This document shows, piece after piece, positions 6,001 through 35,339 of a stretch of DNA of 46,126 nt. The stretch comes from an uncultured Planctomycetales bacterium (GTDB taxonomy: Bacteria > Omnitrophota > Gorgyraeia > Gygaellales > Profunditerraquicolaceae): positions 1-46,126 of the forward strand of contig CAZEBD010000001.1 in the NCBI GenBank assembly GCA_964510625.1, written 5' to 3'. Each line of letters begins with the position of its first letter. The stretch's first letter is position 1. Made by a program: the position numbers and the translations under genes. The notes under the pieces were generated by a model. It did no database searches. It saw only the letters and a list, made by a program, of their open reading frames with translations, and had not been told where the DNA came from.

Positions 6001-9000
6001 ATCAAGTCTGAAACTACTCTATTAGCGTCATTTACCTGTTTCGACAGGTCAGCGGCATTCTGCTCGGCAATTGTCAATTCAGCTTGCGCATTATCCATGG
6101 CTTCTTTGGCAGCAGCCACAGCCGGATCAGTCAAATCGCCGCTGGTTACATCAAATGCGGCCTTAGAATCATTATAAGCAATCTGCTTCTGATCAAGGAC
6201 GGCCTTGGCTTCAACAAATTGCTGCGATAAATCTGATACCAATTTATTTGCATCTTCTAATTTTTTCTCTAAATCAGTAATATTCTGCTCGGCAGTTGTC
6301 AATTCAGCTTGCGCATTATCCATGGCTTCTTTGGCAGCAGCCACAGCCGGATCAGCGGTTACCAGCGTTTCATATGCGGCTTTGGCATCTTCATAGGCCT
6401 GCTCTAATTCGGATAACTTGCTCTTGGCTGCTTCTAACTCTGTCTGTTTAGTTTCCATATCATATTTAGCAGTAAGAGTATCGAATTCTGCCTTGGCCTG
6501 GGTAAACTCATTCAGCGCGGCAACAAGCTTGGCCTCAGCATCCTCCAGGGCCTTACGGCCTGCGGACTTGCCAGATAAATCAGGATCATTTGAATCCTTC
6601 CAATCCTTATTCAATTGAATCTCAACCTTTAATGCTTTATTACCTAAGCCATTATAGTTAGCCGGAATAATGTGTGTTGTGCCAAGATAATTTTCATTAA
6701 AGAGGTTCTGATTGGCGTTGCTCCAGGCGATAATAGCATTTTCATCAGCATCGGTGGTAGCTTCATAGACGATGAAGACATTTAATTTGCTATTTTGTAA
6801 ACCATTATAGTTGGCCGGAATGGTGAAGACAGTGCCGTTATTGGCATTTTCTTGAGTAAAGAGGTCTTGATTGACTTTACTCCAAGCAGCAATAGCATCT
6901 TCATCGGCTGTAGTGAGGTTCTCCTGAACAATGGTAACCTTTAATACGTTATTACCTAAACCGTTGTAATCGGCTTCGATAGTATAAACAATGCTGTTGT
7001 TGGCATTTTCTTGAGTAAAGAGGTCTTGATTGACTTTACTCCAAGCAGCAATAGCATCTTCATCGGCTGTAGTGAGGTTCTCCTGAACAATCATTACATC
7101 CAGCTTCTTATTGCCTAAGCCGTTATAATTTGCCTCGATGGTATAGACGGCGTTGTTGTTGGCATTTTCTTCGGTGAAGAGATCTTTATGGGCATCGCTC
7201 CAGGCGGCAATGGCGTTTTCATCGGCTGTAGTGAGGTTCTCCTGTACGATGGTTACCTTTAATTCATCATTGTTTAAACCGTTGTATTTCTCCGGAATGG
7301 TGTAAACGATATTAGTATTAGCGTTGGCTTCGGTGAAGAGATCTTGATTATCCTTGCTCCATGCCGCGACAGCAGCTTCATTCTCCGGGCTGAGATCCTC
7401 CTGGACAATCATTATATCCAACTTCTTATTTACTAAACCATTGTAATCGGCGTCGATGGTATAAACAGTACTGCTCTTGGCGTTGGCTTCGGTGAAGAGA
7501 TCTTTATGAACATCACTCCAGGCGGCAATGGCGTTTTCATCGGCTGTAGTGAGGTTCTCCTGGACGATGATTACTTTTAATTCTTTATTACTCAAACCAT
7601 TGTAATTTTCAGGAATGGTATAGACGATATTGGTATTGGCATTCTTTTCGGTGAAAAGATCTTTATTAACCTTGCTCCAGGCTTTGATCGCATCTTCATC
7701 GGCCTGAGTAAGACCCTCTTTCACGATCATAACATTCAGCTTTTCATTACCAAGATTACTGTAGTTAGCAGGAATGGTGTAAACTACATTAAGATTTCCG
7801 CTAGTGAATAAGGCAGGATGATCTTCACCCCAAGCGGTAATGGCAGCTTGAGCGGCAGCCTTATCTTCTGAATTTGTCCACCAGTCATATATACCCCAAA
7901 CCCAATCTCCCTTATTTCCGGATACGCGCTGGCCAACAGTGCCTTGGTATGAAGGCAACGCGCTATAATCCGGATCCTTTTGCTGTTTCTCCACAGGCAA
8001 CGGAACTTCTTTAACCAAATCTTCCCTTGTTACATAAATCGGCACATTTTTATCATAGGTGACAACTCCAGTTTCGATAACCTTACCATTCTCATCATAA
8101 TTAAGGATGGTTCCGGTTAATCCATCTGCGCTATACTTATATTCTTGGCGGATTCTCCCCTGCCCATCTTTTATGAATGAATAACGGCCCTGATTATCAT
8201 AAGAAACCTGCGGATTATCAATATTTAAACCGCCATAGCCGATATCATCGGTGTCGCTCTCTATAATATCCTGAATTTTGGAGAATTCGCCTGTACCCTG
8301 CTGCGTCTCAGTAATAGCAGCTGTTAAAGCTGTAGAATTACCCGCAAAACTATTAAGAGTAGTTGCGAATACGGAACTAGCAATAATGAATGCAAAAACT
8401 AGATTAACAACACCCCTCTTTGTAAGAATATTCTTGAAGGTGCCGCTTAACTCGTCGATTAAGCCATAACCGATGAATTTGATGGTAAATGATAAATTAG
8501 ACAAACGGGATTTAACAGCAGCTTTTAAAGTCGCTGCAGCTGCCCCTGCATTTTTATTTTTAAACGCTTGGGCCTGAGCGACAATAGCTTTTCTTTCAGT
8601 GGCCTGGGCCTCATGCAGCTGAACCTGATTGCGGACAGCCTCATCTTCAATTTCCACGCTGTAGCTGATCTGGCCATCTTTGCGGGAAGCGATAGGATAG
8701 AATAAAGCGCGGATATTTCTGATTACCGGAGGAGCCCTAATACCGTTGGTACGCTCTATATGATTTAAAGCAATTCTATAGGTAGCCAGGCCCATTCTAA
8801 CGAAATCCTTAGCCACTGACGGATAGCGCAGAGCACCCACAAACTGGCCAACCGGGCGCCAATTGTGCCCACGGCTACTGCGGCTTCTTGCATAAGAGAT
8901 ATTGGCGATAACAAAGATGGCTAAAGAACCTAATCCAGCGGCGACAAAATCTAACCAGTCAAAAGTACCATGAATCCAACCTAACCCTTGCGCTAATTCC

Positions 9001-12000
9001 GTTCCGGCAGAAAAAGTAAATAAGCTTACCGCGGCTTTAAATACTAAAGCCCGATACTTATTATGAGAAACGCTCAGCGCAGCTAAAGCTCCCTTTTTGA
9101 AGAATACAGGAGCGCCTGAAATGATTACTGCGCTCCAAACAATCGGACCTAAGAAATCCTGGGAATAACCGTGCGGCGGAAGCGTCCATCCGTTAAAGAA
9201 ATACCCGGAGATATACATCGCCAACATTATAAAATAAGAAATCAGAACAATCGGATTCATAATTACCGGTTTAATTCTCGATTCATTCTTACGGTATCTG
9301 TTTACCGCAACCAATGAAGCGCCAGTCATGAACAGAAACGCCCCAAGCAAGCCATAGTTAAATAAATATTCTATATCTAAACTATTGAAAACATCCCCGG
9401 TTGACATGACGATTGAGCCTAAGATGAAGCCCCAGGTAATCGGAGAAAATACCGAGTTAGTGTTCTTTTTGACAATCTTGAACCCATAACGTGAACGGGG
9501 AGCCGGGGCAACGATACCGCCATACTTAAGCTCAGGATAATTCTTTAAGGCTAACTTAAGCGGAGTAGCTGAGATGTGGGTAACTAAGCCATCAACAACC
9601 GGTAAATTCTTAGTTTCGTGTTTAAAATATGGGAAATCTTTAGCGTAAATTAAGAAATATTTATCGCCAAATTCCAGGCTATTATCATTGGGCCGATGCA
9701 GGAAGCTGGCGGCAAAGCCATTTTTACCAGGAGCGTTACGTAATACATTCTGGCGGGCTTTGCGGCGGTAAGATAAAAATCCTGCCGCGGCTACCGCTAA
9801 AACGGATAAATACCACAGGTAATTTAAGTTGAAACCGGCATTAGCATTAGTACCATTCGAAGCAGCCATCGCCGGGGCTACGGAGGCAAAGAACATGGTT
9901 ATTGTGGCAAGAGCGCCAGAAATTACCCTCTGGAGGAGAGGCTGGACACTCTTGCGCACAATAACAGGCGCAACTCTCTTCCCTGCCACGGTAGGAGAAG
10001 TAAGCGCCTTAATGAAATTAGTTAACCCCGTAGATTGAGTTGACTTTGTAGACTGGGACAAGCGTGCGGGCTTCCTCGATGCGGCTTTTGACGTCGGCGG
10101 CGAGCGGCCCGACCAATTCGTGCCAAGTCCCACCATTACGAACATGAACTGCACCTGAATCTTGGACCAGAAAGATTCTGATCTTATTACTACTTTGCTC
10201 ACGGGCTGTAGCGAAGGTTGAATAATTCTTGGTGTAGTCAACGATGTGGTCCATACGGATGTCTTCGATCTTGATTGGGCACATGTTACACCTCCTTTTA
10301 CAAAAATAGCCGTAACTACTATTCCTAATAAGGAAATAATAGCAGACGGCAAGGTTAAAGTAATTTGACTGAGAATTACTGCGATTTGGAAAGCGATTGT
10401 AGCGAGGCTGGCGGCCACGGCATGGGCGCGCACAAACTGCACGCCCTGTTTGGCCAAGCTGCTAAATGTTTTATAAAGACGGTTTAATTGCTCAGCTTTT
10501 CTACTGAAATACTGCGCAAATTCATCATTTCCAGAATCGCGGCCTGTCTTAATTCCTGAAGTCTGCGTATTCTGTACTGCGTGTCTATCGCTGCTAATTC
10601 TTCTCTCATTTTTAATATGTCTTCCATTTTCATTTCTCCTCTCCTTGATTACGTTGGTTAATTGATTAATTGCATTTGCTACAAAACGCGCAACTAAACC
10701 AACAACCGGAGGAGCTAAGGAAATAATGGCGCTTCCAATGCCTACCAGCTTGGAAATAATTAATGACTGCCCTTCTTCTTTTACTTCGGATTTAGAAACT
10801 TTGTTTGAAATTAACTTTCTTACGGAAGCGATTAAACCGGTAATCACGGTGTGGGAATTGGCTGACTTAACACCATTGGAAGCCGCTAATGAACCGGCAA
10901 CGGGCAGGCCGGCCGGAACATCCACAGTATCGGCAACCGGTAAAACTTCGATTGCGTTAGATAATTCTCTGGAAACGTTAGCTAAGAATGAAACTACTGC
11001 ATTAACCGCATTGGACAAGCTTACCGCTACTGTGTTAACCGCTGCCTGAACGGCTGTAGTTTTATTCTCAGTTCCGGTTGTTTGACCGTTGGTAATTGCC
11101 CTACCTAATTCATACAGCTGAGCCACTAATATAGGTAAGCTGATTAAGAATGAACCGATCCGGCTCAATGCTCCGGTTACGCTGGAGAATAAGGCACCAG
11201 CAATGTTAGCTAACCCTGCGCGGGCTTCTCCGAAGGCTAACTTAATCGCGTTAACCACGATTTCTGCGCCCTGAGCATATCCGCCCACGGAATTATCTAA
11301 GATATTTAAAACGTTATTTAAGATTTCAGAGGCTACGGTGTTCTCATTAGTTAAAGATATGCGCCCAGCGGCTAAATTGATGCGAGTAGAATTAACTTTG
11401 TTCTCTCTGGCCTTTAATGCTTCGGCTCTGACATAAGATTCCTCTTTCAGGGTGTTGATAAACTCATCGGTTTCGTTGAGTAATATAAAGGTATTGGTAA
11501 GCTCAATCATGGAAGCATAAGGAAGGCCATAACGATGAGCGATTAAGCGGGCAGCGCGGAAATAACGGCCATGCAGGTTATTTAACCCACGGTTCTTGAT
11601 TGCTCCGATGAGCTTCTTAAGCAGGGCAGCAGCGATATCATCATCTTCGCGGCGGCGGGCTATCATATCGAAATGTATTACGAATAATGCCGGGTTGTTA
11701 GCAATTCTGTCTAAGGCGATAATAGTGTCGTTCAGGGCCTTAATCGCATTGCGCAGCTGGGCAGCTGTATAGCGGGAAACTATGTTATTACGGAAAGCTG
11801 TTCTTGCTAACTCTCTTTCTAAATTATCCTTTAAATTGCGCAAGGCATTAGAAAGATCATTGAATATTCCGGCCGGAGGAGCGCGGCTATTGCTGGTTAC
11901 CTTGTCAGAAGTATCAGCTCTTGGATGCTCCATGGTTACTTTGCCTGTCTGAGGTAAACCTTCAACTCTATTTGCATTAGGTAAGTTGCCAACATTCTTG

Positions 12001-15000
12001 TTTGCGCCAGTGATAACCGCTGTCAGAGCGACTACAACAGCTACTGCGCCGGCGGCTACACCAGTTGTACCGCCAACCGTAAGAGCCGTAGAAACTGCTA
12101 TCGCTATGGCGGTAATTGCTAAAATCAAACCGATACTAGCCATTCCTGCATTACCGTTGGATGAATCGCCATTAGATGAGCCAAATCCTGAGCTACTATT
12201 ACCATTACTATTGCCAGTGGAACCGGTTGAACCGGTAGTACCAGTTATTCCGGTAGTGCTGGATGTTCCAGTTGTTCCATTTGAGCCAGTAGTACTGTTT
12301 GTGTCAGAGCTATCGCTTTTTCTATCCGCGCTCTGGGCTGCATTGTTATTAGAATCTCCCTTTATCGGAGCAGAATCCGTATCCTTATAACATTCTTCTG
12401 TAACCCGATTTTCTTTTTCACTTGCCTCAACTTTGTCATTAAAGCTCTCTGCTACTAAAGTTATAACCCCTGCTCCGGAAAAATTAAATTTGGCTACGTT
12501 AACGAGTCTCTTGCGATTAGCAATATTGCCGCCAAAAGCTGAAATAAACGTACCTTTCTTCCCTACCTTATACCCAAAAGGCATAACCGCATGAAAATTA
12601 CTATTCTCTAATTTCTCTACTATCTCGAATTTAACCTTCTGATCTATAAATTCATTAATCCTGCCGGGGGCGACTCTGGCTACAAATAAATGCTCCAATT
12701 GATTTTCATGGCTAGCGTTATATTGATCAACTAGGTCATTGTAAGCCTGTACTGCCACTCTTAACGTCCACATTCCTCCTGCAGCTTCAACTTCCCTTCT
12801 CTTTGCTTCCAATCTTTCTCTTATAGGCATAGGCGCAATAGTCGTAAAGCAGTTCTCGCCATTCATCCATTCAAAATTCTTTTTATTAATTCCTACCGAT
12901 TCTTCTGCTGTTTCTATAGCTTCTCCTGATTTTTCTATAGCTTCTCCTGATTTTTCTATAGCTTCTCTTGCTATTGCAATGGCTTTCTGAGCCATTATAA
13001 AAACTTCAGCCTGGTTTTGTGCGTCTAACCAGGTAAAATAAGCATCTACCTCATCCTTATTTAATTTTCTAGTCTGGATCCCAGCTTCCAATATCTTACT
13101 GCCGTCATATTTTTTACCATCAAATATAATTTTTAAAGCAGCATTAACAATATCCATATCTCCGCCCACTCTATAAACTACCCCAACCGCGGCGCGAATC
13201 TTGTTTTGAGCCGCCAACCAATCACTTATCTCTTCTACAGCTTCTTGGGTATAATCTTCAAGGTTACCCTTCTTACCATTCTCTTCCCATAATTCAGTCT
13301 TTTTGGCTTGAATTACGTCTATAAGTTTTATAAATTCAGCCTGAGTAAGCTCAATTTTACGATGTTCATTCCAACGATCAATACTCTCTCTTTTAGCTTG
13401 GGCCACTGTTAATTCTTCTAACGCAGCAGCAACTTCTTTAACTAATTCACTCTCTTCTACTATTGGTTTGACTGCTACAGAATCTTTAACTCTATCGGAA
13501 CCAGCTAATTTCTGTGTAATTTTGCCAAAACGATTTAGACTGCCGTCTTTCTTATGAGAAGCATGATTGAATAGGAGAGTCTTAAGATAGGATGATGCTT
13601 TGCTAAAGTCATTGGAGAAGCCATACGCACGAATAGAACCTCGGTTTTCGGCATTTTCTGCCTCACCTTTGGTTCTAGATAGATATCTTGCAGCTATCAT
13701 TACAGCTGCCTTGATGCTTGCTACAAACCCGTTTGTACTTGTACTTACTACTAATACTTCTGCGCCTGTTTTGCTGTCTGCCTCGGCGCTTGCACTTCTA
13801 GAACCTGTGATTCTGCTGATTATTCTGGCAATCTTATTACCTATACTATTGCCTAGGATAACCCTGGAATCATTGATGCTTACGCCCTCTACGGACGTAT
13901 TACCTACATTACTAGACGCACCTTCTGCATCCTGCCCTTCTACTCCATTTCTGGAGTTTGCACTCTGGGCACCTAACAGTTTTCCAACTAATTCAACTGT
14001 GCTTCTTACTGCATTTGCTACACTGCTTGATACAATTACAACTAATGCACCTACATTGCCTCTCGATTTTGATGCACCAAGCACCTTTGAGAGAAAGGCT
14101 TTGGCGAGGGCTACGGGCGGGGCCAAACCACTTAGAATACGACCATAACCTTCTGTAATTTGCGTAGAAATAGTATGTATAAAGCTACTTCTTGCCATAG
14201 CTTCTTGCTGGCTAGTCTGGCCGCCCAGAACTGCACCCACCTCTAACCCCGTGCTACTGGCGCTCACACTAGGCGCATTAGGCACGGTTTGCCCTGGAAC
14301 TGCCGGAATAGCTGGAGAAGTTCTCTCTGCGGGCGTCTGTTGCTCAGGGGAAGATTGCTTATTATTCCTATATTTATTAAATAGCCACTTTATAACCAAA
14401 CCACCGCCAACCAACCCTACGCCAACGGCCAGGCCAATCAACCCCTTAACACCGCCAGCACCAGAACCATAAATAATAGGTAGCGCTGCTCCAGTGACCC
14501 CTACTGCAAAGACAGTTAATGCTGTCTCAATTCTGGTAAATCCTGTGTTATTTGGCTGTTCTGGCAAGTCTTTAATAACACTACTCGTTGTCTCCGCTGG
14601 CAACTGTCTAGAAGGCTGATTGGTTAGTTGATCTAAGCTATCTATTCCTAACAATTCAGCGATCTTATTCTTTTGATCTGCATCGAAGGAGCTTAACGCT
14701 CCGGATTCTGCCAATCTTTGGACTAATTTTACTTTCGCTCTATCGGTAAGAAAACGAAGCGGAACTTTATTATGCGTGCTTGTTTCTCCGAAGGCTTCAA
14801 GTTTAACTCCATTTTCAGTCAATGCCCATGAATCAAACTCAAGCACAATGCCATCAGAGAATTTATTAGCGAAGACAGGAGTAAACATTCTTGTAAAAAG
14901 CGTTACTGCATCTCCATTACCATCTGGTGAATAAAGGTTGCCATTTGAATCAAATAGCATTTGCAAAACATGTTCTATGCTAGTACCGTGATAAATATAC

Positions 15001-18000
15001 CTATACGTATCAAACGGAGCTGATATACCTTGGTTAGAACCAGTTGCTTGAGAGACTTGACCATAATATTTGGTTGCAAGATTTTCACCCGGTTGGGCTG
15101 CTTGTGGCTGAACAGTGGACTCTACGGCAACGACCGTAGACTCAGTATCAACTGCCGGAGCAGTTGTTGCCGACGGAATTTCATTTGGTTTTGCGCCTAC
15201 CGGTTTATCATCTGTTTCACCGGCTGCTTTTTTAGCATCTAACACCCCTTTTGCAATTGCTGTTATTAACTTATCTTGGAGCACACTTTTTGCCTCAGCA
15301 TCAATATAGCTAATCAACTCTTTTTTCTTAACATCAGGCAAATCTGAATTATTTACATCTTCTGTCAAAGTATTACTAAATTTAGCAATATCATCTGCAT
15401 CCATAGAAGTAGTTATTCTATCAACCCATCCTTTAATCGATGCGGTAAATCTGTCAACATGAGTCTTAAATTTAAGGAACTCATTCTCTGAAGACAAAAG
15501 GCTATTGAAAGGAATGCTATCATTTTCAGCAATTACGCTCGTTTCCCCTAATCTTACTGCCCTGTCTTTAACAACTTCAAACGAAGGAGCGAAAGGATCA
15601 ACAAGTTTAATAACGCTATCAGCAAGCTCTGCATTGTTACCTAAATCCGATAAAGTGATCTTCTGCTTTTTATCTATCTTGGCAACAATTCCCTTTATTA
15701 AAACCGCTAATTCTGAGTCGGACTTAGCAAGCAGCTTGTTTATTATTCTTAGAACTTCATATTTTTTGGCTACAGCTGGGAGCAAATTACTGATATTAAA
15801 TTCTTTTAATTCCTTTGCACTGAAGCCTAAATTATCGATTGTTTGCCATAAAGCCTTAGCTTTTTGGAAATCTAACAGTTTCAAATTAGGCTTGCTCAAT
15901 GCTAATTTGAGCAGGAAATATTCGACTTCTTCTAATAAACTTCCCCCTGATTCTTTGCCGACTCTAACTAAAATATTTCCCGTCACTTTATCTAACTCAT
16001 TAAAATCAAGCTTTGCGATATTTTTAAGGTCACCTTGCGCTAAATTAAGCCTGTTATTCGAAACAAACATTATATAACTACCTAATAATAGAGATTTTCT
16101 ATTATTAAGCGCTGTTTTAACTGCATTTATAGAACTCAAAAACCAATTAGGGCTAATCATATCTTCTGCAAACTGAGTCGGATTCAATAAGAAAGCTTGA
16201 GATAAATAATTATCTTTCTTGAGCTTTTCCCGAGCGTCTTTATCCATAAGGATGTACGCAGTATTTACGGTAAGCATATCGCTATAATTAAGTGCTGGAT
16301 TGAGTGCGCCAACAAAAATATCCGCTAATCTTTGTTTTTCATCATAAGAATAGTCAGCGAAATCAGGGCTGGCGAACACTCGATTATTTATTAATTCTGC
16401 AACAGCTTGGGTTGATTCTGGAGTATTTAAGGTAAGATAACTGACTGAATTTGCTACATTAGCAAGAGCCGGTACGTACTTAGCGACTAAAGAAAGTGCT
16501 TCTGGCGAACCACGTGTACCATTTTCCGATAAAACCATGTCTAATGCTTTATAAACCTCGTCCTTTTGGCTGCGTGTCAACGGTCTTTCCCCTGCGCGGG
16601 TTCTAGCAAAAGAAATACTATTAACAATAGCCACGGCTTTTTGATTTTTAGCTGCACTTTTACCCATTTCATCAGGAAGTATCTTTTCCTGAAAACGGCT
16701 ATGTTTTGCAACGCCAGCTATTTCAACAAGATTAGTTGCTTCTCGAATAGATATATCCCTGCGGGCTCTAATTGCTGCATAATCCGCCTGGTTAACTAAC
16801 CTTCTGGATATATCCCTTATGACTGCAGCCTGACTAGTAACATTATTGCCAAAATCACCTTTTGCTATTCTACCAAAGACTGCTTCGGCTTGGCTAGCAA
16901 CCTTTTGCAGACTTTCCCTTATTAATTCATTTGTATCCCGAGAAACACCTAAACTTAAATCTATATCCCCTTCTTTTATATTTAATACTTCATGCAATAT
17001 ATCCTCTAGCTTAACCTGTCTTTCGCCTTTAGTATTAGAAATCATGAGTTTCAACGGCTCAATTAAACCTTTAGAATATGCCGCTTCTCTAATATGATGC
17101 ACCAGGGCATCGGAAATCTCTTCTGCTTGCAATATATCTGCATTTCTCCTTAGATTTAATTCACTTGCCTTCTTACCATAAACTCCACTTTCGGTTATCT
17201 TATTATATAATTCCGATCTTTCTGGGCTTGCAACATTATCTCTTAACAAATCCTTCTGGTAAAATACGGATTTTTTGCTTGTTTCTCCTTGATTCCTAGC
17301 AGTCCGGCCTAAAGCTTGCAATAATTCTGAAGTGCTTAAGTTATGCGCATCCACCAGAATTAAATCATTATTCCCCTTATAATCTATACCGGTTGCTCCT
17401 TTTATATTAGAAAGCACAACCTTACCTTCCATGGAATTAGCGATTTTCCCCACTTCATGTTCTAAAGTAAAATTATCGATTACTTCCAAATCCTTGCCTA
17501 ATTCTAGTTTTAAATCTTTCAGGACATTATATACCGCTTCGAACTGACCGGCATCTTTAGCAATGATTAATAATCCCTTCGGACCTCTCTTGCTTACAGC
17601 CTGGATAATTGCCTTTTTAATCTCCCCTTCTGTTTTAGCTTCTGTAACATCAGCTTTATACTCTGTTTGTGTTACCTCTGTTATTCCCCGGCCTAAATGC
17701 AAAGCATGCATCAACTCTACTTCCCGTAAAGTACCTGAAGCACCAGCGATAGACGCGCCTTTATTAAATAAACTTAAAACACCGGCTACTGTTCCTTGGG
17801 ACGATGTCTCGCTATAAACTAATTTTTCTCTGGCAATGGTTTTACCTTCTGCTATAAACCTATTATATAAAGCAGCTATAAATTTAACGTCACTAAAAAC
17901 CCGGTTTAGCTCAACGTTACCGTTTTCTACCGGCTTTATTTCACCATTCTGAACAGCAACGGTTGAGCCATCGGCAAAGAAAGCATCAAAATATGCCTTA

Positions 18001-21000
18001 ATAAATAGTTTTGCTTCTGCATCGGTTTTCAGACCTAACGCAGTCTTTATTTTCTCAACAGCCAAATCATGCGCTTTCTGGTTAAGACGATATTCTCCTT
18101 TATCACGATATACATATGCCCCTGGACCTTTTGCTTCTTCAATCTTATTAGTTACCTTTATTTCTATTCCCTCAGAAGATTGCTCACGGGCTACCCCGGA
18201 ATTCTGCATTATAGGATCCAACGCCTCTTGCACCTTAGCGGTATTTGCGATTACTGCTTCATCAACTATCTTCTGAGTATCAGCAGTGATATAAGTAACC
18301 TTGCTTGAGAAAGGCAGGTGGAACTCATCAAATCTTACTGTATTCTGCCTCATTAATGCTTCTCGCAAGGAAGCGTCTTTAGTCAAACTTAAGAATCCCA
18401 AAGTAGTTTGATCAAGTATAGTAATCTTACTGGGATTAATCAAAGTATCTATCAACTTTGCAGTACTTCTATTCCCTTCGTTATAATAAGAAGATCCATT
18501 GATTAATTCATAGCCAAAAAGACTTGCCAATTCTTTAAAATCTATGGCACCCTTCCCACCAATTGTCATCTGCGCTTCGCCTGGCTTAACAACCCAAAGT
18601 TGATTCAATCGCACACCAGCAGTTCTTTCGCTAAGTACGCCTCTTATTATGAGCTCGGCCAGGAAACCCAATGTCTTACCTCCAGATGTCTTCTGAGCGA
18701 CGCTATTTTCTTTAAGTAAACCGGCAATCATTCCTAATTGTTCATTCGATCTACCTAAGTCAATTTTACCTTTGGTATCCTTCTTAACTTGTTCAAAAAT
18801 AACTCTGGCAACCAAACCGAATATTTTATCTATTTTTTCTGTCTTGCCAATACCGCTTTTGGTTATTTCTTCTAATTTTCTCTGGATAGAATCTTTATTA
18901 AGATCCACTCTGGCATTAAAACCTTCGGCAATATATTGATCAGACCTGTCTTTTGCCATAAATACTAAATCTTTTCCGTTCTCAGCAAGGATTATTCTTC
19001 CTCCCTCAAGCCTATCGGATAAATTTTCAAAACTCTTATCGATTGCCCGAAGAACAGGAGCAACTGCCAGCTCAGGGTATAACGCCGTAGCTACTTGGCT
19101 GCCTAATTTCATCTTACTAAATAATCCTGTTTTTAGATTAGTTTGCCCATTCAATTCTCTCAGGCTGCTTGTTTCTAATGTCTTTATTTGTGCGTCAATG
19201 CTTCTTAATTTCTTCTCAATGCTACGGAGCACCCGTTCCCGGAGTATCTTATCTCTTCCAGGATCGTCAGACAATTTCGCTTTGTTCATAAAATAATCCC
19301 TGCTATCTAATAATCTGCTTTTAGTTTGAGCAGCTGCATCTATTTCTTCTCTAGTTTCTTTCAATATATTCGTTAATCTTTCGATATCAGGTGTAGAAAC
19401 TTTATCTAAGCCCCTTCTAAACGCATCAAGCAAATAAAGCTTTACATTGTCTTTGACTATCTTTTCATTAACCAAACCATTCTTAATATCCTTTTCAAGT
19501 AATTTACTCGCGCTTCTTAATACACCATCCTCTAATTTTATATCTGCAGATTTAACTAATGCTTCCAATAAATCGGGCTTAACTAATTCAAGATTTAATC
19601 TCTGCAATGATTCATACATTGCTCTGCCCAACGAAGATACACTTGCTAAAGATGACCCATTCAAATAAGCATTCTCATAAACTAACTGCTTATTCAAGAA
19701 ATCGGCCTCTATTTTAGTCAATCCCTCTCGTTCGACCTGCCCCTTAAGAGCACTAATACGCTCTATCCGATTGGCGTAATCCCTTTTCAACTCTGCTCCA
19801 ATCCTTTTATTCAAACTACTAATCTTTACCAATCCTTCTTCATATTGCCCTTGGGTTCTAAATAATTCTAATCTTTCTTGGGCTGCTCGTAGTCTAAGAG
19901 AATCGTTTAAAGTCACCCTTAACATAGTTTCTTGTCCAGAAGGCAAAACAATTGTGATATTTCTTTCTTTGCTTTCTAAACTTCTGCTGTTTATCATTGT
20001 TTCTGCTTGGGCCTTATCTGCAATATGCACTCCTTGGCCTATCTGATCGGTTAATACTCGAGTAATTTCGGAGGCGACTTGTTTATCACCTTTTGTCAAA
20101 GCATTACTTATACTCCCGAATTCTTTAACTACAGAGGACAATTTTTCATAGTTTTTAAATGCTTCAAAAGAAGTAAATTTGCCTCTATCATTAGTAAATC
20201 CTTTAGTTAATAACTGGAGATCCTTGTCAGGAGTGAAATTTGACATTCTTAAGAAAGGAATCCATTTGGCAACTTCTTTTATACCAGTGGACATATACCC
20301 TTGTCGGCTATATTGCCCCGGGGCGATCTCATCATATATAGGAGTAGCTTTGGTAGCTTTTAATAATTGGTCATCAATTATATCTATAACGGTATCAATA
20401 CCGGTAACTATACCAGGCATAGTTATTAAGTTTGAATCTGCCCACTGCATCCCCTCTATGACTTTATTGAGTACTTTTGCCGTTTTTGGATAGGCGCTTG
20501 CTAATCTTGAGAATTTGGGTGAACCATTTGCACCCTCTAAAACACTCTGTCTAAACTTAGCAGAAGCGTTTGAAACTGCATCTTTAAAGGTAATTTTCGC
20601 ATCTCCTGCTTCGACTTTAGTAGCTAATTTTTCACCTATTCTTAATTCCTTTATAACACTGGCCGGGCGTCTGAATAAAGTATTTATGAATTTTTCCCCT
20701 ACCCCCCCTACTGTACCCAAATTAGCAGTTGACGTCCGAACCTGGGCTACCTCTATCATCGGCTTCATCCATAAACCAGAACGAGGCCCTTCAATCCCAC
20801 TGATAAGAATATCTTTGGGGGTAACAGAGTTAAGCACTAATTTCATCTCTCCGTTTTCCTTTACATAATAACCTTTTGTAAGAAACCAGGAATTTAAACC
20901 CGAGCTATTTACCAGTTTCTGCGATTCTGCTGACAATCCACTGCCATAATAACCGGCCTTAGCCTTAACTCCTTCCCAGAATCCCTGACCAACAGTGAAA

Positions 21001-24000
21001 GCCGGAGAAACCAACATCCAGTCAAGCGCTCCGGCTAAAGCTCGGTTATAAAGAAGCTCGGCACCGCTTAGTGAATTTCCAAATTTATTAAATTTAACTG
21101 TTTTAAAAAGTGCCGTAGCCTGCTCTGATCCACCTACGCTATACTCACTAAGATTTTTAGCAAGATTTGCTTTACCTAAATATAATGCCGTCATACCGCC
21201 TAAAGCAAAACTACCTGCAGAATCTAAACCAAACTTTGTATAGCTAAAGCCATCTGCCTTATTCCAATAAGCTCCGTCTTGGCCGCGCAAATAATTAATG
21301 CCGGTTTTCAGTAAATCTACTCCCGGAAGTGCCGCAAATGTAACCCCACCACCATAACTAAATTTAGCTAACCCCCAACCGACTTTACTAAGATTACTCA
21401 ATCCTCCGGTACTCTTACTTAATATTCCCGAAGCATAACCACCATGCAGCCCTAACCCAATAATTCCTCCTCTGGCATAATTAGTCCAATCGCTATAATT
21501 AGCTCCGAACTTGCTTAGATCACCCTCTAAAATGGTTTTAGCTCCAGGAAAAACTACCGCACCACCCAAAGTAGAAAGACCAAGCTTAGCCCAAGATGAA
21601 GTAAGCCAGGATGAAGTGGCAACGCGGGATAAACTAGAAGCAACTGCCCCAGCACCACCAAAAATACCACCAGCCATTGCACCATAAACTAAACCTTTAT
21701 TATAAACTCCCCAAATCGAACTCGGTGTTAATTGCTGGCCAGATTTGAATCCTTTAACAGCATCGCTTACTAAGCCTGTAGCAAGGTATACTTCACCACC
21801 TAAGGCCGCCTGAGATATAACCGCACGGCTTAAATTTGAAAAACCTGCCGCCTCCCCCCACCTCGCAAAATTAGATGCAGAACCAGAAAGAAATCCGGTA
21901 GCGAATAACGTAATATTAGAATTGACATTTGTCAGCGGCTTACCATTCATCGCAAAACTTGTGGCTTGCCCCAATGCTACGTTGCCCAGGCCAAGAGTAA
22001 CACCTCTTTTTAAAGCTTGTGTAAAAGCCTGTCTCGCTGCCGCTGCTTCAGCTAACGCAGCAGTTGAACCTGAAGCTGCTGCAGTTGCGCCTCCCCGAAT
22101 AGCCTGCCCAATAACTGATCCACCTAATTTTAAGAATGAACCTGCGGCTCCAGCAAAATACATATCAAGGCCGCTGAGCGCGATATCACGAGCTAAATCC
22201 CAACCACCGTAACCGACAGGCAATGAAGAATAAGCTTCCGCAACCAAATGGTAAGGATCTGCTCCCCCTTTCATATCCTTTTCTAGAGTACGAGCATATG
22301 CATACTGCATCACATGCACCATCGGCATATTTTCTAACATAGGCAATGGAGTGGAATTTAAATCTTCCGCATATTCTTCTGCTGTTCTAAAGCTTGATTC
22401 AACCTTTGGAACCAAAACGGTATTATACTTATCCAATCTCGTATTAAAATCGCCCTGGATTACCTGAATCGCTTCTCCGTATTTTGTTATAATATTATTC
22501 TCTGGTTGAGTAAGAAAAGAAAAAATGTCGGTTGCAGTTTTGCCATTACTAAGCCCAAGTCCTTCACCTGCTTTCATCGATCTTGAAAGATCCCAATCAC
22601 TGCCAATGCTATCTATCCATCTGCGTTCTACATCCAACATAAACCCTGTCGCCGCAGCTTCTTTAGCTAAACTGTTATAATCATCCATGGCCCGTTGAGC
22701 CTTGCCCTTAGTCTCATACATTCTATCCATACTAAAAGTCCTGCTGAACCAATCCTTAGTTTTTTCCCACCTGCTTTGTTCATGGGAGCGTATTTCTGAA
22801 ACTCCGTCCCAAGCCGGTAATTGGTTAGCAGCAGATGTATTGGCTTTTAACTTCGCATCTAGTTCTTTCGCCTGAATATTAGCCTGGAGAAGATCGTTAG
22901 CATCGTTTATTTTGTCCTTATATAAAGATTGAAAACCTGCATAATAATTCAAAGAGTCGACTAGCTCTTTCTTTGTATAGCGGTCGTTTATCGCAGCAGA
23001 ACCGATTTGAAATTCTGGATGGATCTGATTTGTCCAAGAATTATTCTTATATGCGTAATCCATAAAATAGAGATGCTGGAAACTGTTCTCTCCAAACCCA
23101 TTACCAGTTCGATAGGTTTCAACGAAATCCCCTTGTTGCGACCCGATTAAAGACACATAAGAGTTACCTACGTAACTACTCCCTTTATCTAACCAAGCCA
23201 ACCCATTACTAACACCTTGGCTATAACCACTCTGATAAGCGTTAAATACATATTTATTTAAGTTCATATTATATTCTAAAAATCTTTGACCTTGAGTATT
23301 AGTCATAGAAAACAATTTAAGCTCGGTCTTACCATTAGCCAAAGGATTGCCCGCAGAATCTAAAACAGGCAACTGTTGATATGAAGCATTACCATATTTA
23401 GGTAACACTTGAGTCATCAAATCCTGGATCCTGATATTTTCTTTTCCTGCCCGAATATTGATTGACTTAATGCCGCTACTCGGATTACCTGCTTTATTAA
23501 AAACAACCTCTCTATATCTGTCATAACCAGTGGTATTGAAATTATCAGCGACTACTTGACGATGCGAGAACAGATAAGTTTTGTTGACGCCACCAATCAT
23601 CCCGCCATAGCCGGCAAGGACTTTATCCTGACTGAATACCCAATCTCTACCGACTACATAATCTTTACCCGGCGCAGCGTTCGAAGGACGATAAAGATTT
23701 TCGTAAAAACGATTATGCGCTTGATTAAAGGCTCCTTGTATAGGAGATAGCAGATCTGCTTCCCATCCGGTAAAAGGCTTCCAACCTGCCGCGGGGGCGT
23801 TACTAGCGCCATTGCCGTACGTAGACGTCGAATCCAAAGCTATAGGATCCCCAAAAAATATACCTGCCTTGGCTTCAGTTATATTGCCGCGTAATTGCAT
23901 AAAACGCGTGTAATTCACCTGCATAGTAAGATTATCAATTTTAGTTTCTAAATGTATCGGGGCCGTACCATCAAAACCAGCTAATGACCAAGTCCGGCCT

Positions 24001-27467: not shown

Positions 27468-27505
27468 GGGAAACGTCCCCTTTTGAGGGAAACGTCCCCT
27501 TTTTA
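27468..27505 (-). repeat. REP doublet in inverted orientation; right inverted repeat of the RAYT unit, overlapping the tadC stop codon
   Basis: GGGAAACGTCCCCTTTTGAGGGAAACGTCCCCTTTTT is a perfect 38-bp reverse complement of 26795-26832. Confidence 0.9.
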
Positions 27506-28360
27506 TTTGAAGCCGCCAAGGCCGCCCTGGAGGAAGGTAAGCAGAATTGGGCCGCCTACGATGATGCCGATAACCGGCATAATGCAGAAAATCAGAGGAA
27601 TAAGGATCTTAATCGGTGCCTGTAAAGCAATTCTTTCACCGCGGTGGAATCTTTGGGCGCGGGCATCTTCGGAAAGAATGGTAAAAGCCTCGGTAACCGG
27701 CGTACCCATACGCTCAGCCTGGATAATTGTCTGGGCAAATGAGGTCATTTCAGGTATCTCCAGGCGATGCGCCATATCCTTTAAGGCCTGGATGCGCGGC
27801 TTACCCCATTTTATCTCTTCAGCCACAAAAGCCAACTCCTCAGTCATCGGGGTATGCGGAGTACGCTCAATCACCCATTTTACGGAATTAACAAAATCCA
27901 GGCCGGCCTCGATACAAAGCCCCAGAAGATCAATGGTTTCCGGAAGGCGGCGAGCAATCAGATATTTACGCTTAGCAACCTTACGTTTAATATAGAAATC
28001 CGGCAGCATATAGCCTAAACCAACAGGAATTATTAATGTCAAAGGATCTATTTTCCCGCTGGCCGACACCACCAACACCGCTAAAAGGATGCATAGAATT
28101 ATCTTGAGATTAAAGAATGCTCCGGGTGAGATCTCCATCCGCGCCGCTTCCAGGGTCTTTTTTAAGCTGGCAGCCAGGCCGGTCTTCTGTAAAAGCGGCC
28201 CAGTAGGAAAGATGTTCATAAAATCAAACCCCGGCTTCTGGAATTTGATCTCCGAGCCATCCTGGGCCCTGCGCGGCAGGGTACTGGGCGGAGAATAAAT
28301 CAAACTCCACACCACCAGGCCGATCGCCCCCAGAATCGAAAGTAAGATGACGATAACCAT
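27503..28360 (-). CDS. tadC: Tad pilus inner-membrane platform protein, TadC-like (T2SS-F domain)
   Basis: Track ORF of 285 aa with TM helices flanking a cytoplasmic T2SSF-type domain (LPETIDLLGLCIEAGLDFVNSV...). It lies directly downstream of the TadB-like gene with a 1-nt gap. Confidence 0.75.
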   Translation of the reverse strand: MVIVILLSILGAIGLVVWSLIYSPPSTLPRRAQDGSEIKFQKPGFDFMNIFPTGPLLQKTGLAASLKKTLEAARMEISPGAFFNLKIILCILLAVLVVSASGKIDPLTLIIPVGLGYMLPDFYIKRKVAKRKYLIARRLPETIDLLGLCIEAGLDFVNSVKWVIERTPHTPMTEELAFVAEEIKWGKPRIQALKDMAHRLEIPEMTSFAQTIIQAERMGTPVTEAFTILSEDARAQRFHRGERIALQAPIKILIPLIFCIMPVIGIIVGGPILLTFLQGGLGGFK

Positions 28361-28361
28361 A

Positions 28362-29207
28362 TTAGATTTTGATTGTGCTAAAAATCTTGATCAGGATCAT
28401 CCCCACTACCTGCAGGACTACCGCGGCAATTAAAAGCATCCTGCCCATGTTGGTCTGCAGCATGATATCGAAATGATTTTTATTCACCGAGACCACCCAG
28501 CCCACAAAAGCAATCGGCAAAAAGGACATGATCATACCCTGCATTCTTCCCTGCAGGGTAAGGGTTTTAATATTTTCCCTTAATTTACGGTTATCCCTGA
28601 TGGTTACCGTCAGGCGGCTGAAGACCTTGGGCAGCTCTCCTCCGGTTTCCCTGGCCACCAGCAGGGCATTGACCACCAAACCCAGCTCCTCCAGATTCAT
28701 CCTTTTATTCAGGCGTTTAAGGCACTCCTCTAAAGGAATACCCATACGGTTCTCTCTGACCACCAAGCCTAACTCCTGGCTGATCGGGGCAGGCATCTCC
28801 TCGACGAGAACTTCCAGCCCCTGCAAAAGGCTTAAGCCCCCTTTAATACAGCTGGAAAGCATATTAATCGCATCTAAGAGCTGCTCGTTAAACTTGCGGA
28901 TCCTGATTTTATACCGGGTTTTTAAGATGAAATTCGGGATGGAGACGCCGATAAGCACCCCTAAAATCAAAAAAAGGTTTGATTTTAAGATAACCAACCC
29001 CCAAAAGCCGAAGATTAAAGGCAGGATGAAATAAAGCATGACAATGCCTTTTGGGCTCTTGTCATAAAACATCTTATCCATTTCCTTGCCAAACTCTTCC
29101 TCCTTTTTCTGCTGCCAGAATTGCATCTTCTGCACAATCGGCGGAAGGAGGCTCAAAGAAATTAAAATTACCGCGCACAGGATTAAAAGATTAAGCAAAA
29201 TAAGCAT
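28362..29207 (-). CDS. tadB: Tad pilus inner-membrane platform protein, TadB-like (T2SS-F domain)
   Basis: Track ORF of 281 aa with an N-terminal TM, LLDAINMLSSCIKGGLSLLQGLEVL, and C-terminal TM helices. It is a paralogue of the adjacent gene. Confidence 0.75.
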   Translation of the reverse strand: MLILLNLLILCAVILISLSLLPPIVQKMQFWQQKKEEEFGKEMDKMFYDKSPKGIVMLYFILPLIFGFWGLVILKSNLFLILGVLIGVSIPNFILKTRYKIRIRKFNEQLLDAINMLSSCIKGGLSLLQGLEVLVEEMPAPISQELGLVVRENRMGIPLEECLKRLNKRMNLEELGLVVNALLVARETGGELPKVFSRLTVTIRDNRKLRENIKTLTLQGRMQGMIMSFLPIAFVGWVVSVNKNHFDIMLQTNMGRMLLIAAVVLQVVGMILIKIFSTIKI

Positions 29208-29224
29208 AATATCCCAATTTTTAT

Positions 29225-29389
29225 TTAGCCGGCCTGCTCGCCGCCGCCGATGACATCGATAGACTGCCGGAATTTACCTTGCAGGCTGCGCTTGTAATAT
29301 GCTCCCGCCAGGATTAATACTGCAGTGACCACCGCCAATACCAGCAGATATTCCATCACCGACTGCGCTTTAAAATTTAGTTTTTCCAT
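29225..29389 (-). CDS. flp: Flp-family prepilin (54 aa; below the ORF-track size cutoff)
   Basis: Hand translation gives MEKLNFKAQSVMEYLLVLAVVTAVLILAGAYYKRSLQGKFRQSIDVIGGGEQAG*. It has the A/QSVMEY class-III signal motif and an upstream AAAGAGGA. Confidence 0.8.
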   Translation of the reverse strand: MEKLNFKAQSVMEYLLVLAVVTAVLILAGAYYKRSLQGKFRQSIDVIGGGEQAG

Positions 29390-29525
29390 ATCCGTTATTT
29401 TATCCTCTTTGGGTTAAGATAGTCACTAAAACCAAACATAATCTCACAATAGCAGATTTATGAAAAAAAGCTACTTTTTTTATTGTGTGTTGTTTTGGAA
29501 AGTGTGCGGATTGGAAAATAAGATG

Positions 29526-31355
29526 TTAGCCGGTGCTGGTTATCTCAGGATAATACTCATCTTTAAATTGCCCGATAGCCGCTCCGCCGATACCTACCTG
29601 ATCGAAAGTGGCAGTGCTGTTACTTGTGCTTGACACGGTTCCTGCGGTTTTGGAAGTTACCGTACATTTGACCTCCCAGGCTCCGTCTAAAGTTACAGAA
29701 TCAATATAATGAATCATTAAGCCCGGATAAAGATCGTTTACGCCTTTATAATCCTGTACTTCCTTAGCATTTTTAAAAGATTCCGCACCCCCGGCCGATT
29801 GCCAGACATTATTCCAGATATCATTATTCCATTTTATGAATACCGGTATAGTTGCCTCATTTCCAAGCGAGGCAAAGCTAATTTTGTTTAACCAAACACG
29901 GATTTTTTCTTCATTAGCCTTTAAATCAGCCAACGTGACTGCAAGGGCAGCGTAAGCCTCCGTACAATCATAACCATCTTCGCAAGCCTCGGCATAATAT
30001 TTGGAGTCTTCATAGACAGATTTATTCGATGTGAATAAAGAATCGGCGGTAAGGCCTTCAAAAAACTCCGGCTTAAATGATTCTGTACCCGCTGGAAGTT
30101 TTCCGGTTGCGATAATGGATAAAAGGTCGGCAACATCGCGCAGCGCGTATGATAAACCTACAAAATAATCACCTAACGCGATGCCATCTTTACCCTTCTC
30201 GCCGTTGATCCGTTCATCAACACCGGGTGTAGCCGGATCATCTTTAGCATCGGGATGATAGTAGCGATCACTAGTCATGTCTTGCGGTAAATCATCGTAG
30301 TCGCAAAACAAAGCAGCGGCTTCACGATTGAAAGGATCACCCAGAAAAACAGCAGGCGGAATAGAATATATTATGGGTAGCCCAATATCAAGAGGAACAG
30401 CGTGAAGCATATGTTTTTGCGGAAAGTTCCATTTAGTATGGAACAATTGATAAGTTTGAATCTTAGGTAGCTCACATTTCACCGAAAGTGAACCACCCTC
30501 GTAATCATAAGTAGCCTCTTCCTTAGTCGGGGTTACTCCGGTTACCGGATCCTTTGTCCCTTCAAAAATAGAGCCTGTACCTATCTGGAAATTCAAATCA
30601 TCTCCGCCGCCTCCGGGAATCAGACATGTACCATTATTAAATCCGTAAGTTTGCCCGGTTTCTCTAGCTTGTTTAAAAGCCCCACCCTCACCGCCCTCAT
30701 TCCCTTTCCCGTCTTTATCCCCACTGCCGCCTTGCATAAAACTATCTGCGTTACCGAAATTCTCCATCTGAACGCTTCTGAAATAATCAGTAAATTCGTG
30801 CATAAAATAGAGATAAACAGAAAAAGCCCCCAACTGCTTAGAAGCTTCGTATAAAGCTGCGGCAGCTTGTTTATTAAGATCAGCGGCGGTCAACTCCTTT
30901 GCCCATATTGTACAATCCGGCTCTTTAACCATTTGTTCCATCGCCTGTTTCATTAATTTTTCCGCTTTGTGGCAATAATTAATTGCATTTTCTGCATATT
31001 TGCCTTTAACCGAAGCATTATAAAGAACTTCATACTTTTTACGCATCTCCTCAAAATAATCTTTCAGCTCTTTATAGTAAGTGTCAGTATTCTCCTTATT
31101 CATATACTGCACCGTATTGCCGGGAGTAGGAGGAGGGGTTTTATCCTTGTTCCGAAACACCAATTGATTAAAAGCACCTGCTTCATAAGAAGCAGCAGCC
31201 AGCGCCGCGGCATCGGCGGCATTAGACGCACAACTCTTGGCTACTTTGGCTTTCCCGGTTGCTTTAGTTACCGCTATAAGCGCCAGCAACCCGGCTATGC
31301 AAACCAGCAGAACCGGGAAAATTTGCCCGTTACAGCTGTTTTTATTCTTAAACAC
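29526..31355 (-). CDS. tadG: TadG-like large pseudopilin / putative pilus-tip protein (609 aa)
   Basis: The N-terminus reads NGQIFPVLLVCIAGLLALIAV, followed by the SNAADAAALAAAS motif typical of TadG-like proteins. The C-terminal part is large and unassigned. Confidence 0.55.
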   Translation of the reverse strand: MFKNKNSCNGQIFPVLLVCIAGLLALIAVTKATGKAKVAKSCASNAADAAALAAASYEAGAFNQLVFRNKDKTPPPTPGNTVQYMNKENTDTYYKELKDYFEEMRKKYEVLYNASVKGKYAENAINYCHKAEKLMKQAMEQMVKEPDCTIWAKELTAADLNKQAAAALYEASKQLGAFSVYLYFMHEFTDYFRSVQMENFGNADSFMQGGSGDKDGKGNEGGEGGAFKQARETGQTYGFNNGTCLIPGGGGDDLNFQIGTGSIFEGTKDPVTGVTPTKEEATYDYEGGSLSVKCELPKIQTYQLFHTKWNFPQKHMLHAVPLDIGLPIIYSIPPAVFLGDPFNREAAALFCDYDDLPQDMTSDRYYHPDAKDDPATPGVDERINGEKGKDGIALGDYFVGLSYALRDVADLLSIIATGKLPAGTESFKPEFFEGLTADSLFTSNKSVYEDSKYYAEACEDGYDCTEAYAALAVTLADLKANEEKIRVWLNKISFASLGNEATIPVFIKWNNDIWNNVWQSAGGAESFKNAKEVQDYKGVNDLYPGLMIHYIDSVTLDGAWEVKCTVTSKTAGTVSSTSNSTATFDQVGIGGAAIGQFKDEYYPEITSTG

Positions 31356-31380
31356 AATTCCCTCCTACTATCTTGCCAAA

Positions 31381-31578
31381 TTAACTATTTAAAGGTACCT
31401 CTGGCACACCTGGCGAAGCTTTCTTGCCTGCCTGTGTCCGGGTACCTTCAAAGGCACCTTCCCGCTGCGACAGGTGGGCTAATGACCAACTCCATAAGGA
31501 TACCATCGTTGACATTAAAATTATGGCGATAGCAAAAACCACTGTGTATTCTATTATCGATTGCCCTTTTTTCACCAT
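31381..31578 (-). CDS. Flp/TadE-type prepilin-like protein (65 aa)
   Basis: MVKKGQSIIEYTVVFAIAIILM carries the G/QSIIEY motif plus a hydrophobic helix. Confidence 0.7.
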   Translation of the reverse strand: MVKKGQSIIEYTVVFAIAIILMSTMVSLWSWSLAHLSQREGAFEGTRTQAGKKASPGVPEVPLNS

Positions 31579-31587
31579 TTCCTACCT

Positions 31588-32193
31588 TTAGTTTGGCGTG
31601 TATATACCGTTACCTGCCAATGTGCTGTCCAGGCTAACCGTTGTTTCACCGATATCCATACTGCCGGTTATACTATCGGCATTACTATGCGATTTACCGG
31701 CAACCATGTTTGCCCCGGGAGACTGCCGCTGATGAAGATAACTGCTAGACCTGGCATCGCTGCTAAAACCAAAACTGCTGACAGTAACATCCCCGGCGGC
31801 AATCGAGGTATCCGTAACGGGAATTTCTTGCGTATACTCTTGCTCTCTATTAAGCTGATAATATGCTTTTGATTCGGGGTGTTCTAAGGTGCCGTCTGGT
31901 TTTAGCTTACCATCTGCCCAAAGGACACTATTGCTGTTAGTATATACTCCCAGCTGCCCCATATCTCCGGGGCCGATCACATCAGGTAACCGGCGGAAAT
32001 CCGCGGTTGTCCAAGCTACTGAATTATTAATCTCCTGGGCTTTCTTTAAGTTAGCCCGGAAGGTTTGTTGCATATAAGAATGCGTGCGATTAAAATCTTC
32101 ACTAAGATTGATAATGATAGAAAAGGCCATTAAGATAAACCCGCCGAGAATCGCTAATTCCAAAAGTGCCTGGCCTTTTTGATTTCTTAACAT
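31588..32193 (-). CDS. TadE-like pseudopilin (201 aa)
   Basis: MLRNQKGQALLELAILGGFILMAFSIIINL carries the TadE-type G/QALLEL motif. Confidence 0.65.
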   Translation of the reverse strand: MLRNQKGQALLELAILGGFILMAFSIIINLSEDFNRTHSYMQQTFRANLKKAQEINNSVAWTTADFRRLPDVIGPGDMGQLGVYTNSNSVLWADGKLKPDGTLEHPESKAYYQLNREQEYTQEIPVTDTSIAAGDVTVSSFGFSSDARSSSYLHQRQSPGANMVAGKSHSNADSITGSMDIGETTVSLDSTLAGNGIYTPN

Positions 32194-32229
32194 TTCTCGC
32201 CTCTTGATTTATGACTACCGGCTCAAAAA

Positions 32230-33143: not shown

Positions 33144-33155
33144 TATATTAAACCT

Positions 33156-33449: not shown

Positions 33450-33480
33450 ATCCTCCTCCTAATCTTTAATTTCCGCTTTT

Positions 33481-33801: not shown

Positions 33802-33849
33802 TTTCCTACCTCCTTAAAATTGAACTTGACCAGCTTTTTATCTTAGCTG

Positions 33850-34155: not shown

Positions 34156-34176
34156 GCCCCACCTCCTAAAAATAAA

Positions 34177-34527: not shown

Positions 34528-34538
34528 TGGCAGCCTCC

Positions 34539-34706: not shown

Positions 34707-34723
34707 CTCTTCTCCTCCTAAGA

Positions 34724-34879: not shown

Positions 34880-34886
34880 TTAATAT

Positions 34887-35093: not shown

Positions 35094-35140
35094 TTAAACC
35101 CGCCTGTTTAGCAAAGCTTAATCAGCGTGTAACTGCCGTA

Positions 35141-35287: not shown

Positions 35288-35339
35288 TTTTATCCTGCCT
35301 TAATTTCCCGATAAAAATCGTATTTACAATTTACACCTA

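Follow-up and report, generated by a model that had tools for sequence, protein, structure and literature searches.

Giant genes of the 'Archaeovorin' type have been described in Omnitrophota by West-Roberts et al. (2023; bioRxiv 10.1101/2023.11.21.568195). Their products carry C39 peptidases near N-terminal signal peptides, many transmembrane helices and carbohydrate-active domains, together with domains of the SecA_DEAD and SecA preprotein-binding kinds in which no scaffold or wing is recognisable, and a secretion cluster of more than 10 genes (including gspD, gspE, gspF, rcpC and class III signal-peptide genes) lies upstream. The SecA-like domains were proposed in that study to export the giant protein itself. 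A 2026 preprint (bioRxiv 10.64898/2026.06.07.730766) reported clusters with a PF07517 + C39 architecture and a Tad cassette beside such genes. Here, we describe a comparable locus in a stretch of 46,126 nucleotides (contig CAZEBD010000001.1 of GenBank assembly GCA_964510625.1, positions 1–46,126; hereafter the window) from an uncultured bacterium with a GTDB lineage in Omnitrophota. The minus strand of the window encodes a giant membrane protein with an embedded motor module. We assign a probability of roughly 60% to the reading that this module is a diverged, catalytically intact SecA-type ATPase which resides in the cytoplasm and feeds polypeptide across the membrane.

The giant protein occupies one stop-free frame of 8,798 codons (positions 3–26396, minus strand) that is open at the window start. 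Its first ATG is at 26393, and the resulting open reading frame (ORF; 3..26393, minus strand) encodes at least 8,797 amino acids (aa), with the C-terminus located beyond the window edge. The original prediction, made from the sequence alone, had used four helicase motifs to place a SecA-type motor inside a giant polytopic protein, ∼2,550 aa from its start. All four are encoded by the minus strand in register with the giant ORF, at the following positions: motif I (AQKTSGGKTL, 18669-18698, aa 2567-2576), motif II (RFDEFH, 18318-18335, aa 2688-2693), motif III (AGASGTLREVELMHALHL, 17694-17747, aa 2884-2901) and motif VI (QALGRTARNQGETSKKSVFYQKDLL, 17244-17318, aa 3027-3051). The predicted range of 17250-18750 encloses motifs I–III but is slightly too narrow, as the last motif ends 6 bases outside it and the module spans ∼17037-18755.

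The SecA-like motor module (17037..18755, minus strand, aa 2548-3120) is composed of nucleotide-binding domain 1 (NBD1), an insertion that resembles the preprotein cross-linking domain (PPXD) of SecA, NBD2 and a long C-terminal helix. Where module residues are quoted below, numbering starts at aa 2500 of the giant protein, so that adding 2499 gives the position in the full-length chain. In the first part of NBD1 (18285..18755, aa 2548-2704), Gln 2553 is conserved, and Walker A (GGKT, aa 2572-2575) and Walker B (DEFH, aa 2690-2693) are both present. The strand that follows Walker B (VTYITAD; family consensus ..TSYIIGG) is aligned with ARTPLIISG of SecA. Between motifs II and III lies the PPXD-like insertion of ∼175 aa (17766..18284, aa ∼2705-2877), after which the chain re-enters NBD1 through a return strand and motif III (17685..17765), the GASGTL sequence of which is aligned with GMTGTA of SecA. 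NBD2 (17190..17684, aa ∼2905-3069) comprises motif V (GATGIDY) and motif VI (QALGRTARNQG). Past NBD2, a conserved helix of 44 residues (17037..17168, aa 3077-3120; residues 578-621 of the AlphaFold2 model) follows the family pattern NA...S.AL....RE...S...IEPLK.MI and occupies the place of the SecA scaffold helix. The module is followed by a conserved family-specific extension (16017..17036, aa ∼3121-3460) which can be aligned in 17 relatives and which blastp finds in common with the relatives P0003, P0009 and P0020.

The relationship to SecA was evaluated with an alignment of 22 homologues that are 16-46% identical to the window sequence. When this family was compared by hhalign with a SecA profile of 21 sequences (E. 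coli SecA and SecA genes recovered via the back-translated pattern DEARTPLIISG), the probability was 98.1% (E = 1.2e-13), and the 359 aligned columns, all colinear, connect module residues 49-462 with residues 82-471 of E. coli SecA. The colinear order comprises Walker A, Walker B, the strand after it, the insertion, motif III (GxSGT/GMTGTA) and the beginning of NBD2. With E. coli SecA as the only reference, the probability was 94%. The original prediction had proposed to look for a preprotein cross-linking domain between motifs II and III, and this expectation was borne out: taken alone, the ∼175-aa insertion matches the SecA profile with 80.8% probability (E = 1.3e-5) and maps to residues 264-378 of E. 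coli SecA, which correspond to the PPXD. A smaller SecA profile of five sequences still gave 61% (E = 8e-5), and with five E. coli DEAD-box proteins as the profile the value was 0.4%.

The predicted fold is in agreement with the profile comparison. An AlphaFold2 model calculated on the 22-sequence alignment, which extends no further than aa 3140, had a predicted local distance difference test (pLDDT) score of 81.1 and a predicted template modelling score of 0.77, and in it the insertion forms an alpha/beta bulb carried by a stem of two strands. With just three sequences in the alignment, the AlphaFold2 model had a pLDDT of 48 and profile searches were uninformative. When the PDB was searched with Foldseek, the first 23 ranks were all SecA or SecA2 (E = 1e-15 to 5e-9). 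The top superpositions were obtained with substrate-engaged SecA-SecY structures (6itc, template modelling score (TM-score) 0.66, root-mean-square deviation 6.4 Å; 5eul, TM-score 0.64), and the first matches other than SecA (MDA5, DinG and RecQ) had TM-scores of at most 0.40. The structural superposition suggested at the outset is thus in favour of SecA. The SecA-likeness rests on a PPXD at the right site, a colinear architecture and the overall predicted fold. As judged from the alignments and the model, the module has a clamp like that of SecA, folded as in the closed-clamp state, and its resemblance to SecA is more than the cross-match of a generic helicase.

The residues expected for ATPase activity are retained. 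Five residues are the same in all 22 sequences: Lys 2574 of Walker A, Asp and Glu of Walker B, the motif III Gly and R3031, the first Arg of motif VI. Two Gln residues, one in motif VI and the other upstream of Walker A, are conserved in at least 90%. Apart from the Lys and its neighbouring Gly, the P-loop positions differ between members. Because five residues are invariant across 22 homologues at 16-46% identity, the motif match is not due to chance. The module is a conserved NTPase and is probably active. Comparisons with blastp revealed that the motor and ∼350 aa downstream of it form the best-conserved block among otherwise divergent giant proteins. One relative, P0011, additionally has the N-terminal transmembrane and C39 region in common with the window protein, with 45% identity at the N-terminus. 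In another, P0009, residues 3067-3142, downstream of its motor, match Peptidase_M50 (site-2 protease; E = 6e-13); the HExxH motif is absent from the window protein.

The family is rare and is found in a narrow range of hosts. When 1.84 billion representative proteins were searched exhaustively with HMMER, 72 matches were obtained at E ≤1e-3, nearly all of them located thousands of residues inside proteins of 1,000-7,800 aa, many of which are cut by contig ends. A word-indexed homologue search retrieved two relatives, one of them from an Omnitrophica metagenome-assembled genome (MAG), and repeating it with the 22-sequence profile yielded no relatives beyond those two. A scan of one genome per GTDB species, with an alignment of three sequences as the query, identified seven loci, each in a Candidatus Omnitrophota MAG and each wholly within a giant ORF. 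By source name, ten relatives belong to Omnitrophota or to Gygaella (also Omnitrophota), plus one from a 'Deltaproteobacteria' MAG, and the others carry no taxon. Wherever the label is reliable, the motor family is confined to Omnitrophota. The names given to the relatives in public databases are C39 peptidase, ATP-binding protein or hypothetical protein, and SecA is not among them.

From the domain identity, architecture, conservation and genomic context described here, we infer the location, substrate, cis action and channel of the motor as follows. It would be positioned at the membrane on its cytoplasmic side, anchored through transmembrane segments of the giant protein itself and not through the C-terminal domains of SecA. 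ATP-driven clamp cycles would grip unfolded polypeptide and feed it over the membrane. Probable substrates are the large hydrophilic segments of the giant protein itself, for example the ∼2,300 aa between aa ∼6017 and 8306, and the channel could be either SecYEG or the giant protein's own transmembrane bundles. Strong transmembrane hairpins and large hydrophilic modules located downstream of the motor count in favour of self-export, which is plausible and corresponds to the published hypothesis.

Several observations weigh against this reading. The first group concerns sequence searches. The Pfam models SecA_DEAD (PF07517), SecA_PP_bind and SecA_SW, which had been suggested as a check, matched none of the 22 members at E ≤1, and the Pfam SecA models did not match the window sequence even at E ≤10. 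The fourth model suggested, Helicase_C, was found, although just weakly and in 6/22 members; the other Pfam matches, also weak, were DEAD (5/22) and ResIII (3/22). No NCBIfam model, including those for SecA, matched the motor module, and single-sequence searches of the module (Pfam, NCBIfam and phmmer against the PDB) returned nothing but a sub-threshold Helicase_C match. A purpose-built SecA profile HMM scored at most 3.8 bits on every family protein with all filters off. When the family profile was searched against PDB sequences, the top match was the DEAD-box protein Mss116 (RecA2; E = 2e-10), with SecA at ∼7e-4, and a profile of the N-terminal half (NBD1 and the insertion) found nothing significant. 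In profile-profile comparison, the NBD1 core (module residues 40-200) matched the DEAD-box profile with 95.4% probability (E = 2e-8) and the SecA profile with 66-69% (E ∼5e-5), below the DEAD-box score, and NBD2 was weak against both. By sequence profile, the RecA cores are no further from DEAD-box helicases than from SecA, so for them the original claim of a closer motif resemblance to SecA than to DEAD-box proteins does not hold.

The second group concerns the SecA C-domain and membrane topology. The helical scaffold domain (HSD), the helical wing domain (HWD) and the two-helix finger were not detectable in aa 3060-3640 by hhalign and sequence comparison only. The 44-residue helix (aa 3077-3120) has no sequence similarity to the SecA HSD, and the extension (aa ∼3121-3460) has no match to the SecA C-domain. 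The module thus has no recognisable counterpart of the two-helix finger, the part of canonical SecA that enters SecY. A crude hydropathy scan revealed no strong transmembrane segment between the N-terminal anchor and the motor, and it is for this reason that the cytoplasmic location of the motor is an assumption. Taken literally, the scan would place the ATPase outside the cytoplasm, which makes topology the main weakness. The only transmembrane candidates before the motor are weak and Gly-rich (aa ∼1400-1620), for example an uncharged segment at aa 1568-1590. They are part of a Gly/Ala-rich, weakly hydrophobic region (∼21000-22200, minus strand, aa ∼1400-1800) with glycine-zipper-like runs such as GLVYGAMAGGIFGGAGAVASSLS. 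This region is common to the window protein and the relative P0007, and it may be the site of the transmembrane segment or segments that return the motor to the cytoplasm.

The alternative that survives best, although we consider it unlikely, is that the module is a clamp ATPase that descends from SecA but has a task different from export of its own giant protein. It could, for example, be a cytoplasmic holdase or unfoldase by which the nascent giant chain stays unfolded or is delivered to the C39 or other peptidases, export a partner, or be coupled to the Tad/Flp system. The structural and profile evidence for such a clamp is identical to that for self-export, and with neither a two-helix finger nor a scaffold detected, canonical docking to SecY is not evident. 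The neighbourhood of the Tad/Flp cluster and the N-terminal C39 domain is conserved, and the M50 protease of P0009 past its motor would also fit this alternative. However, nothing ties the motor specifically to the pilus genes, and it always occurs in cis with giant proteins rich in transmembrane segments, the simplest explanation of which is that it acts on the same protein.

A more far-reaching version of the cis-acting model is that the clade constitutes a second, deep-branching lineage of PPXD-bearing protein-translocation motors, with RecA cores equally near to DEAD-box helicases and SecA and with its own conserved C-domain of ∼350 aa instead of scaffold, wing and two-helix finger, working independently of SecYEG as a translocase through the giant protein's own transmembrane bundles. 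We regard this as improbable, more so than the clamp with another job. If it were true, the motor would thread the extracytoplasmic modules of the giant protein and might pass them to the adjacent Tad-type secretin.

The DEAD-box resemblance of the RecA cores could also be accounted for if the module were a generic superfamily 2 (SF2) helicase domain for RNA or DNA, similar to DEAD-box proteins, that carries an insertion of unrelated origin; the likeness to SecA would then reflect only the common ancestry of DEAD motors. Pfam matches limited to Helicase_C, DEAD and ResIII, Mss116 as the best PDB match of the sequence profile, and the higher score of the NBD1 core against the DEAD-box profile are what such a domain would be expected to give. 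The insertion, however, is located at the PPXD site and matches the PPXD when taken alone, with no DEAD-box match; the top 23 structural matches are SecA, with TM-scores up to 0.66 compared with at most 0.40 for helicases; and the module is embedded in a giant membrane protein with no nucleic-acid-related domains detected by Pfam. What was found is thus SecA as the top fold and a PPXD-like insertion, and not an unrelated SF2 family without SecA-specific insertions, which the original prediction had named as the outcome that would speak against a SecA-type motor. On the evidence of the insertion and the fold we rejected the generic helicase, which is very improbable. Least credible of all is a degenerate relic of SecA that has lost catalysis and serves only as a structural or peptide-binding spacer, as the extreme divergence, long branches and P-loop that varies apart from its Lys and adjacent Gly are set against the invariant Walker A Lys, Walker B Asp-Glu and motif VI Arg, the nearly invariant Gln and the position of the motor as the most conserved block of these giant proteins.

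A built-in motor of the SecA type is so far the main clue to how bacterial proteins of 10,000 to >80,000 residues are inserted or exported. The SecA-like clamp fold, together with the existence of a whole clade of such motors that is missed by standard annotation, strengthens the published self-export hypothesis. The analysis also defines a compact module of ∼570-900 aa (aa 2548-3120, or to ∼3460).

The remainder of the giant ORF comprises recognisable modules on both sides of the motor, all on the minus strand. At the N-terminus, the hydropathy scan detected a hydrophobic segment (26253..26318, aa ∼27-48), a putative signal anchor. It is followed by a C39-type cysteine peptidase-like domain (25635..25874; Pfam PF03412, E = 3e-7 to 6e-6, score above the gathering threshold), and the Pfam match spans just the C-terminal two thirds of the profile. 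Within ∼25740-26015 (aa ∼128-220), the C39-like domain has a candidate catalytic Cys (KPCGSKALYDYL, aa ∼129) and a candidate catalytic His in EEHYILV (aa ∼216), both apparently kept. After it, a linker-like stretch (∼24800-25400, aa ∼335-530) is formed by Pro/Lys-rich low-complexity repeats, with three PKVV units and five units of the TKKPVGPV[RK]QQ type. Past the motor, the first strongly hydrophobic transmembrane hairpin is at 14391..14522 (aa 3959-4002), and the scan located further transmembrane segments up to aa ∼6017 and then at aa 8306-8324 and 8649-8677. The ∼2,300 aa of hydrophilic sequence between aa ∼6017 and 8306 contain tandem repeats, coiled coils and a glycosidase-like domain. 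About eight tandem copies of a ∼52-aa module are present at ∼6597-7859 (aa ∼6180-6600), with the pattern …ADE[DN]AIAAWS..N.DLFTEENAN..IVYTIPANYNGLGNKKL.V.IVQENLT…, and an additional copy is close to the C-terminus (aa ∼8440-8475). This module matched no known family, and a Pfam Acyl-CoA_dh_N match in this region is spurious. The coiled coil (∼5525-6500, aa ∼6630-6960) has three units of the DPAVAAAKEAMDNAQAEL type and four AKAQNIT heptads in tandem, and it gave a weak Pfam OEP match. A glycoside hydrolase signature resembling clan GH-A, IWELGNEYN, is found at ∼4100-4400 (aa ∼7336-7425). Compared with PDB sequences, this region matched GH158 (E = 2.6e-6) and GH5 beta-mannanases (∼7e-4), and it had no match in Pfam.

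Directly upstream of the giant gene and co-directional with it, Pfam matches define a Tad/Flp pilus-type cluster similar to type II secretion systems (T2SS; 27503..45982, minus strand). It encodes, in order, a TPR protein, RcpC/CpaB, a secretin with TonB_C, a ParA-like/T2SSE fusion, Flp-type pilins, a TadE/G-like protein and two T2SSF proteins. The pilin genes form an array of approximately nine small ORFs of 51-116 aa (32230-35093, minus strand) with N-termini like those of Flp or class III-type pilins (G/QST[AL]EY), for example KGQSTAEYAIVIGLV, KAQSTLEYVILLGVV and RGQSTLEYVIVLAAV. Two unusual fusions are encoded at 37898-40057 and 40059-41669 (minus strand): one protein of 719 aa joins a ParA/MinD-like (TadZ-like) domain to a T2SSE (CpaF-like) ATPase, and the secretin carries its TonB_C domain at the C-terminus. 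The cluster also includes a 677-aa ORF (35382-37415, minus strand) with a Glu/Lys/Ala-rich coiled coil and a polyproline tract, which had no Pfam match.

When the motor is compared with known systems, DEAD-box RNA helicases such as Mss116 and RhlE share the RecA-core motifs Q, I, II, V and VI and their spacing, and in sequence-profile searches the NBD1 core and NBD2 both score highest against them. However, their RecA1 domain is contiguous, without the 175-aa PPXD-like insertion, and their motif III is SAT, whereas that of the window protein is SGT/TGT-like (GASGTL). Canonical SecA and SecA2 have the same DEAD-type motor of NBD1 and NBD2, intact ATPase motifs, a PPXD inserted after Walker B and before motif III, and a long helix past NBD2, and they provide the best structural match, in particular in the closed-clamp, substrate-engaged state. 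Canonical SecA is a free-standing, soluble or peripheral protein of ∼800-1000 aa that docks on SecYEG, whereas the module described here forms part of an ORF of 8,797 aa or more, and neither an HSD or HWD nor a two-helix finger or C-terminal linker could be detected in it.

The closest counterparts are the Omnitrophota giants of West-Roberts et al., which are likewise polytopic, with an N-terminal signal region and C39 domain, an embedded SecA-type motor without recognisable scaffold or wing, carbohydrate-active modules and, immediately upstream, a T2SS/Tad-like cluster that includes pilins with class III signal peptides. The two differ in size (at least 8.8 thousand residues here, with the C-terminus cut off, compared with at least 30 thousand in the proteins studied there), and the motor clade described here is too divergent for the Pfam SecA models that reported theirs. 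The Pfam-negative clade may therefore be a separate branch, more divergent than the published Pfam-positive domains. In summary, this kind of arrangement has already been published, and the window protein is a new, more divergent example of it. What the present comparisons add is a clade that is invisible to the Pfam SecA models, with RecA cores that, by profile scores, appear equidistant from DEAD-box helicases and a family-specific C-domain that appears to replace the recognisable C-domain of SecA; its homology to the PPXD holds for the insertion alone, and its predicted fold is nearest to SecA in the closed-clamp state.

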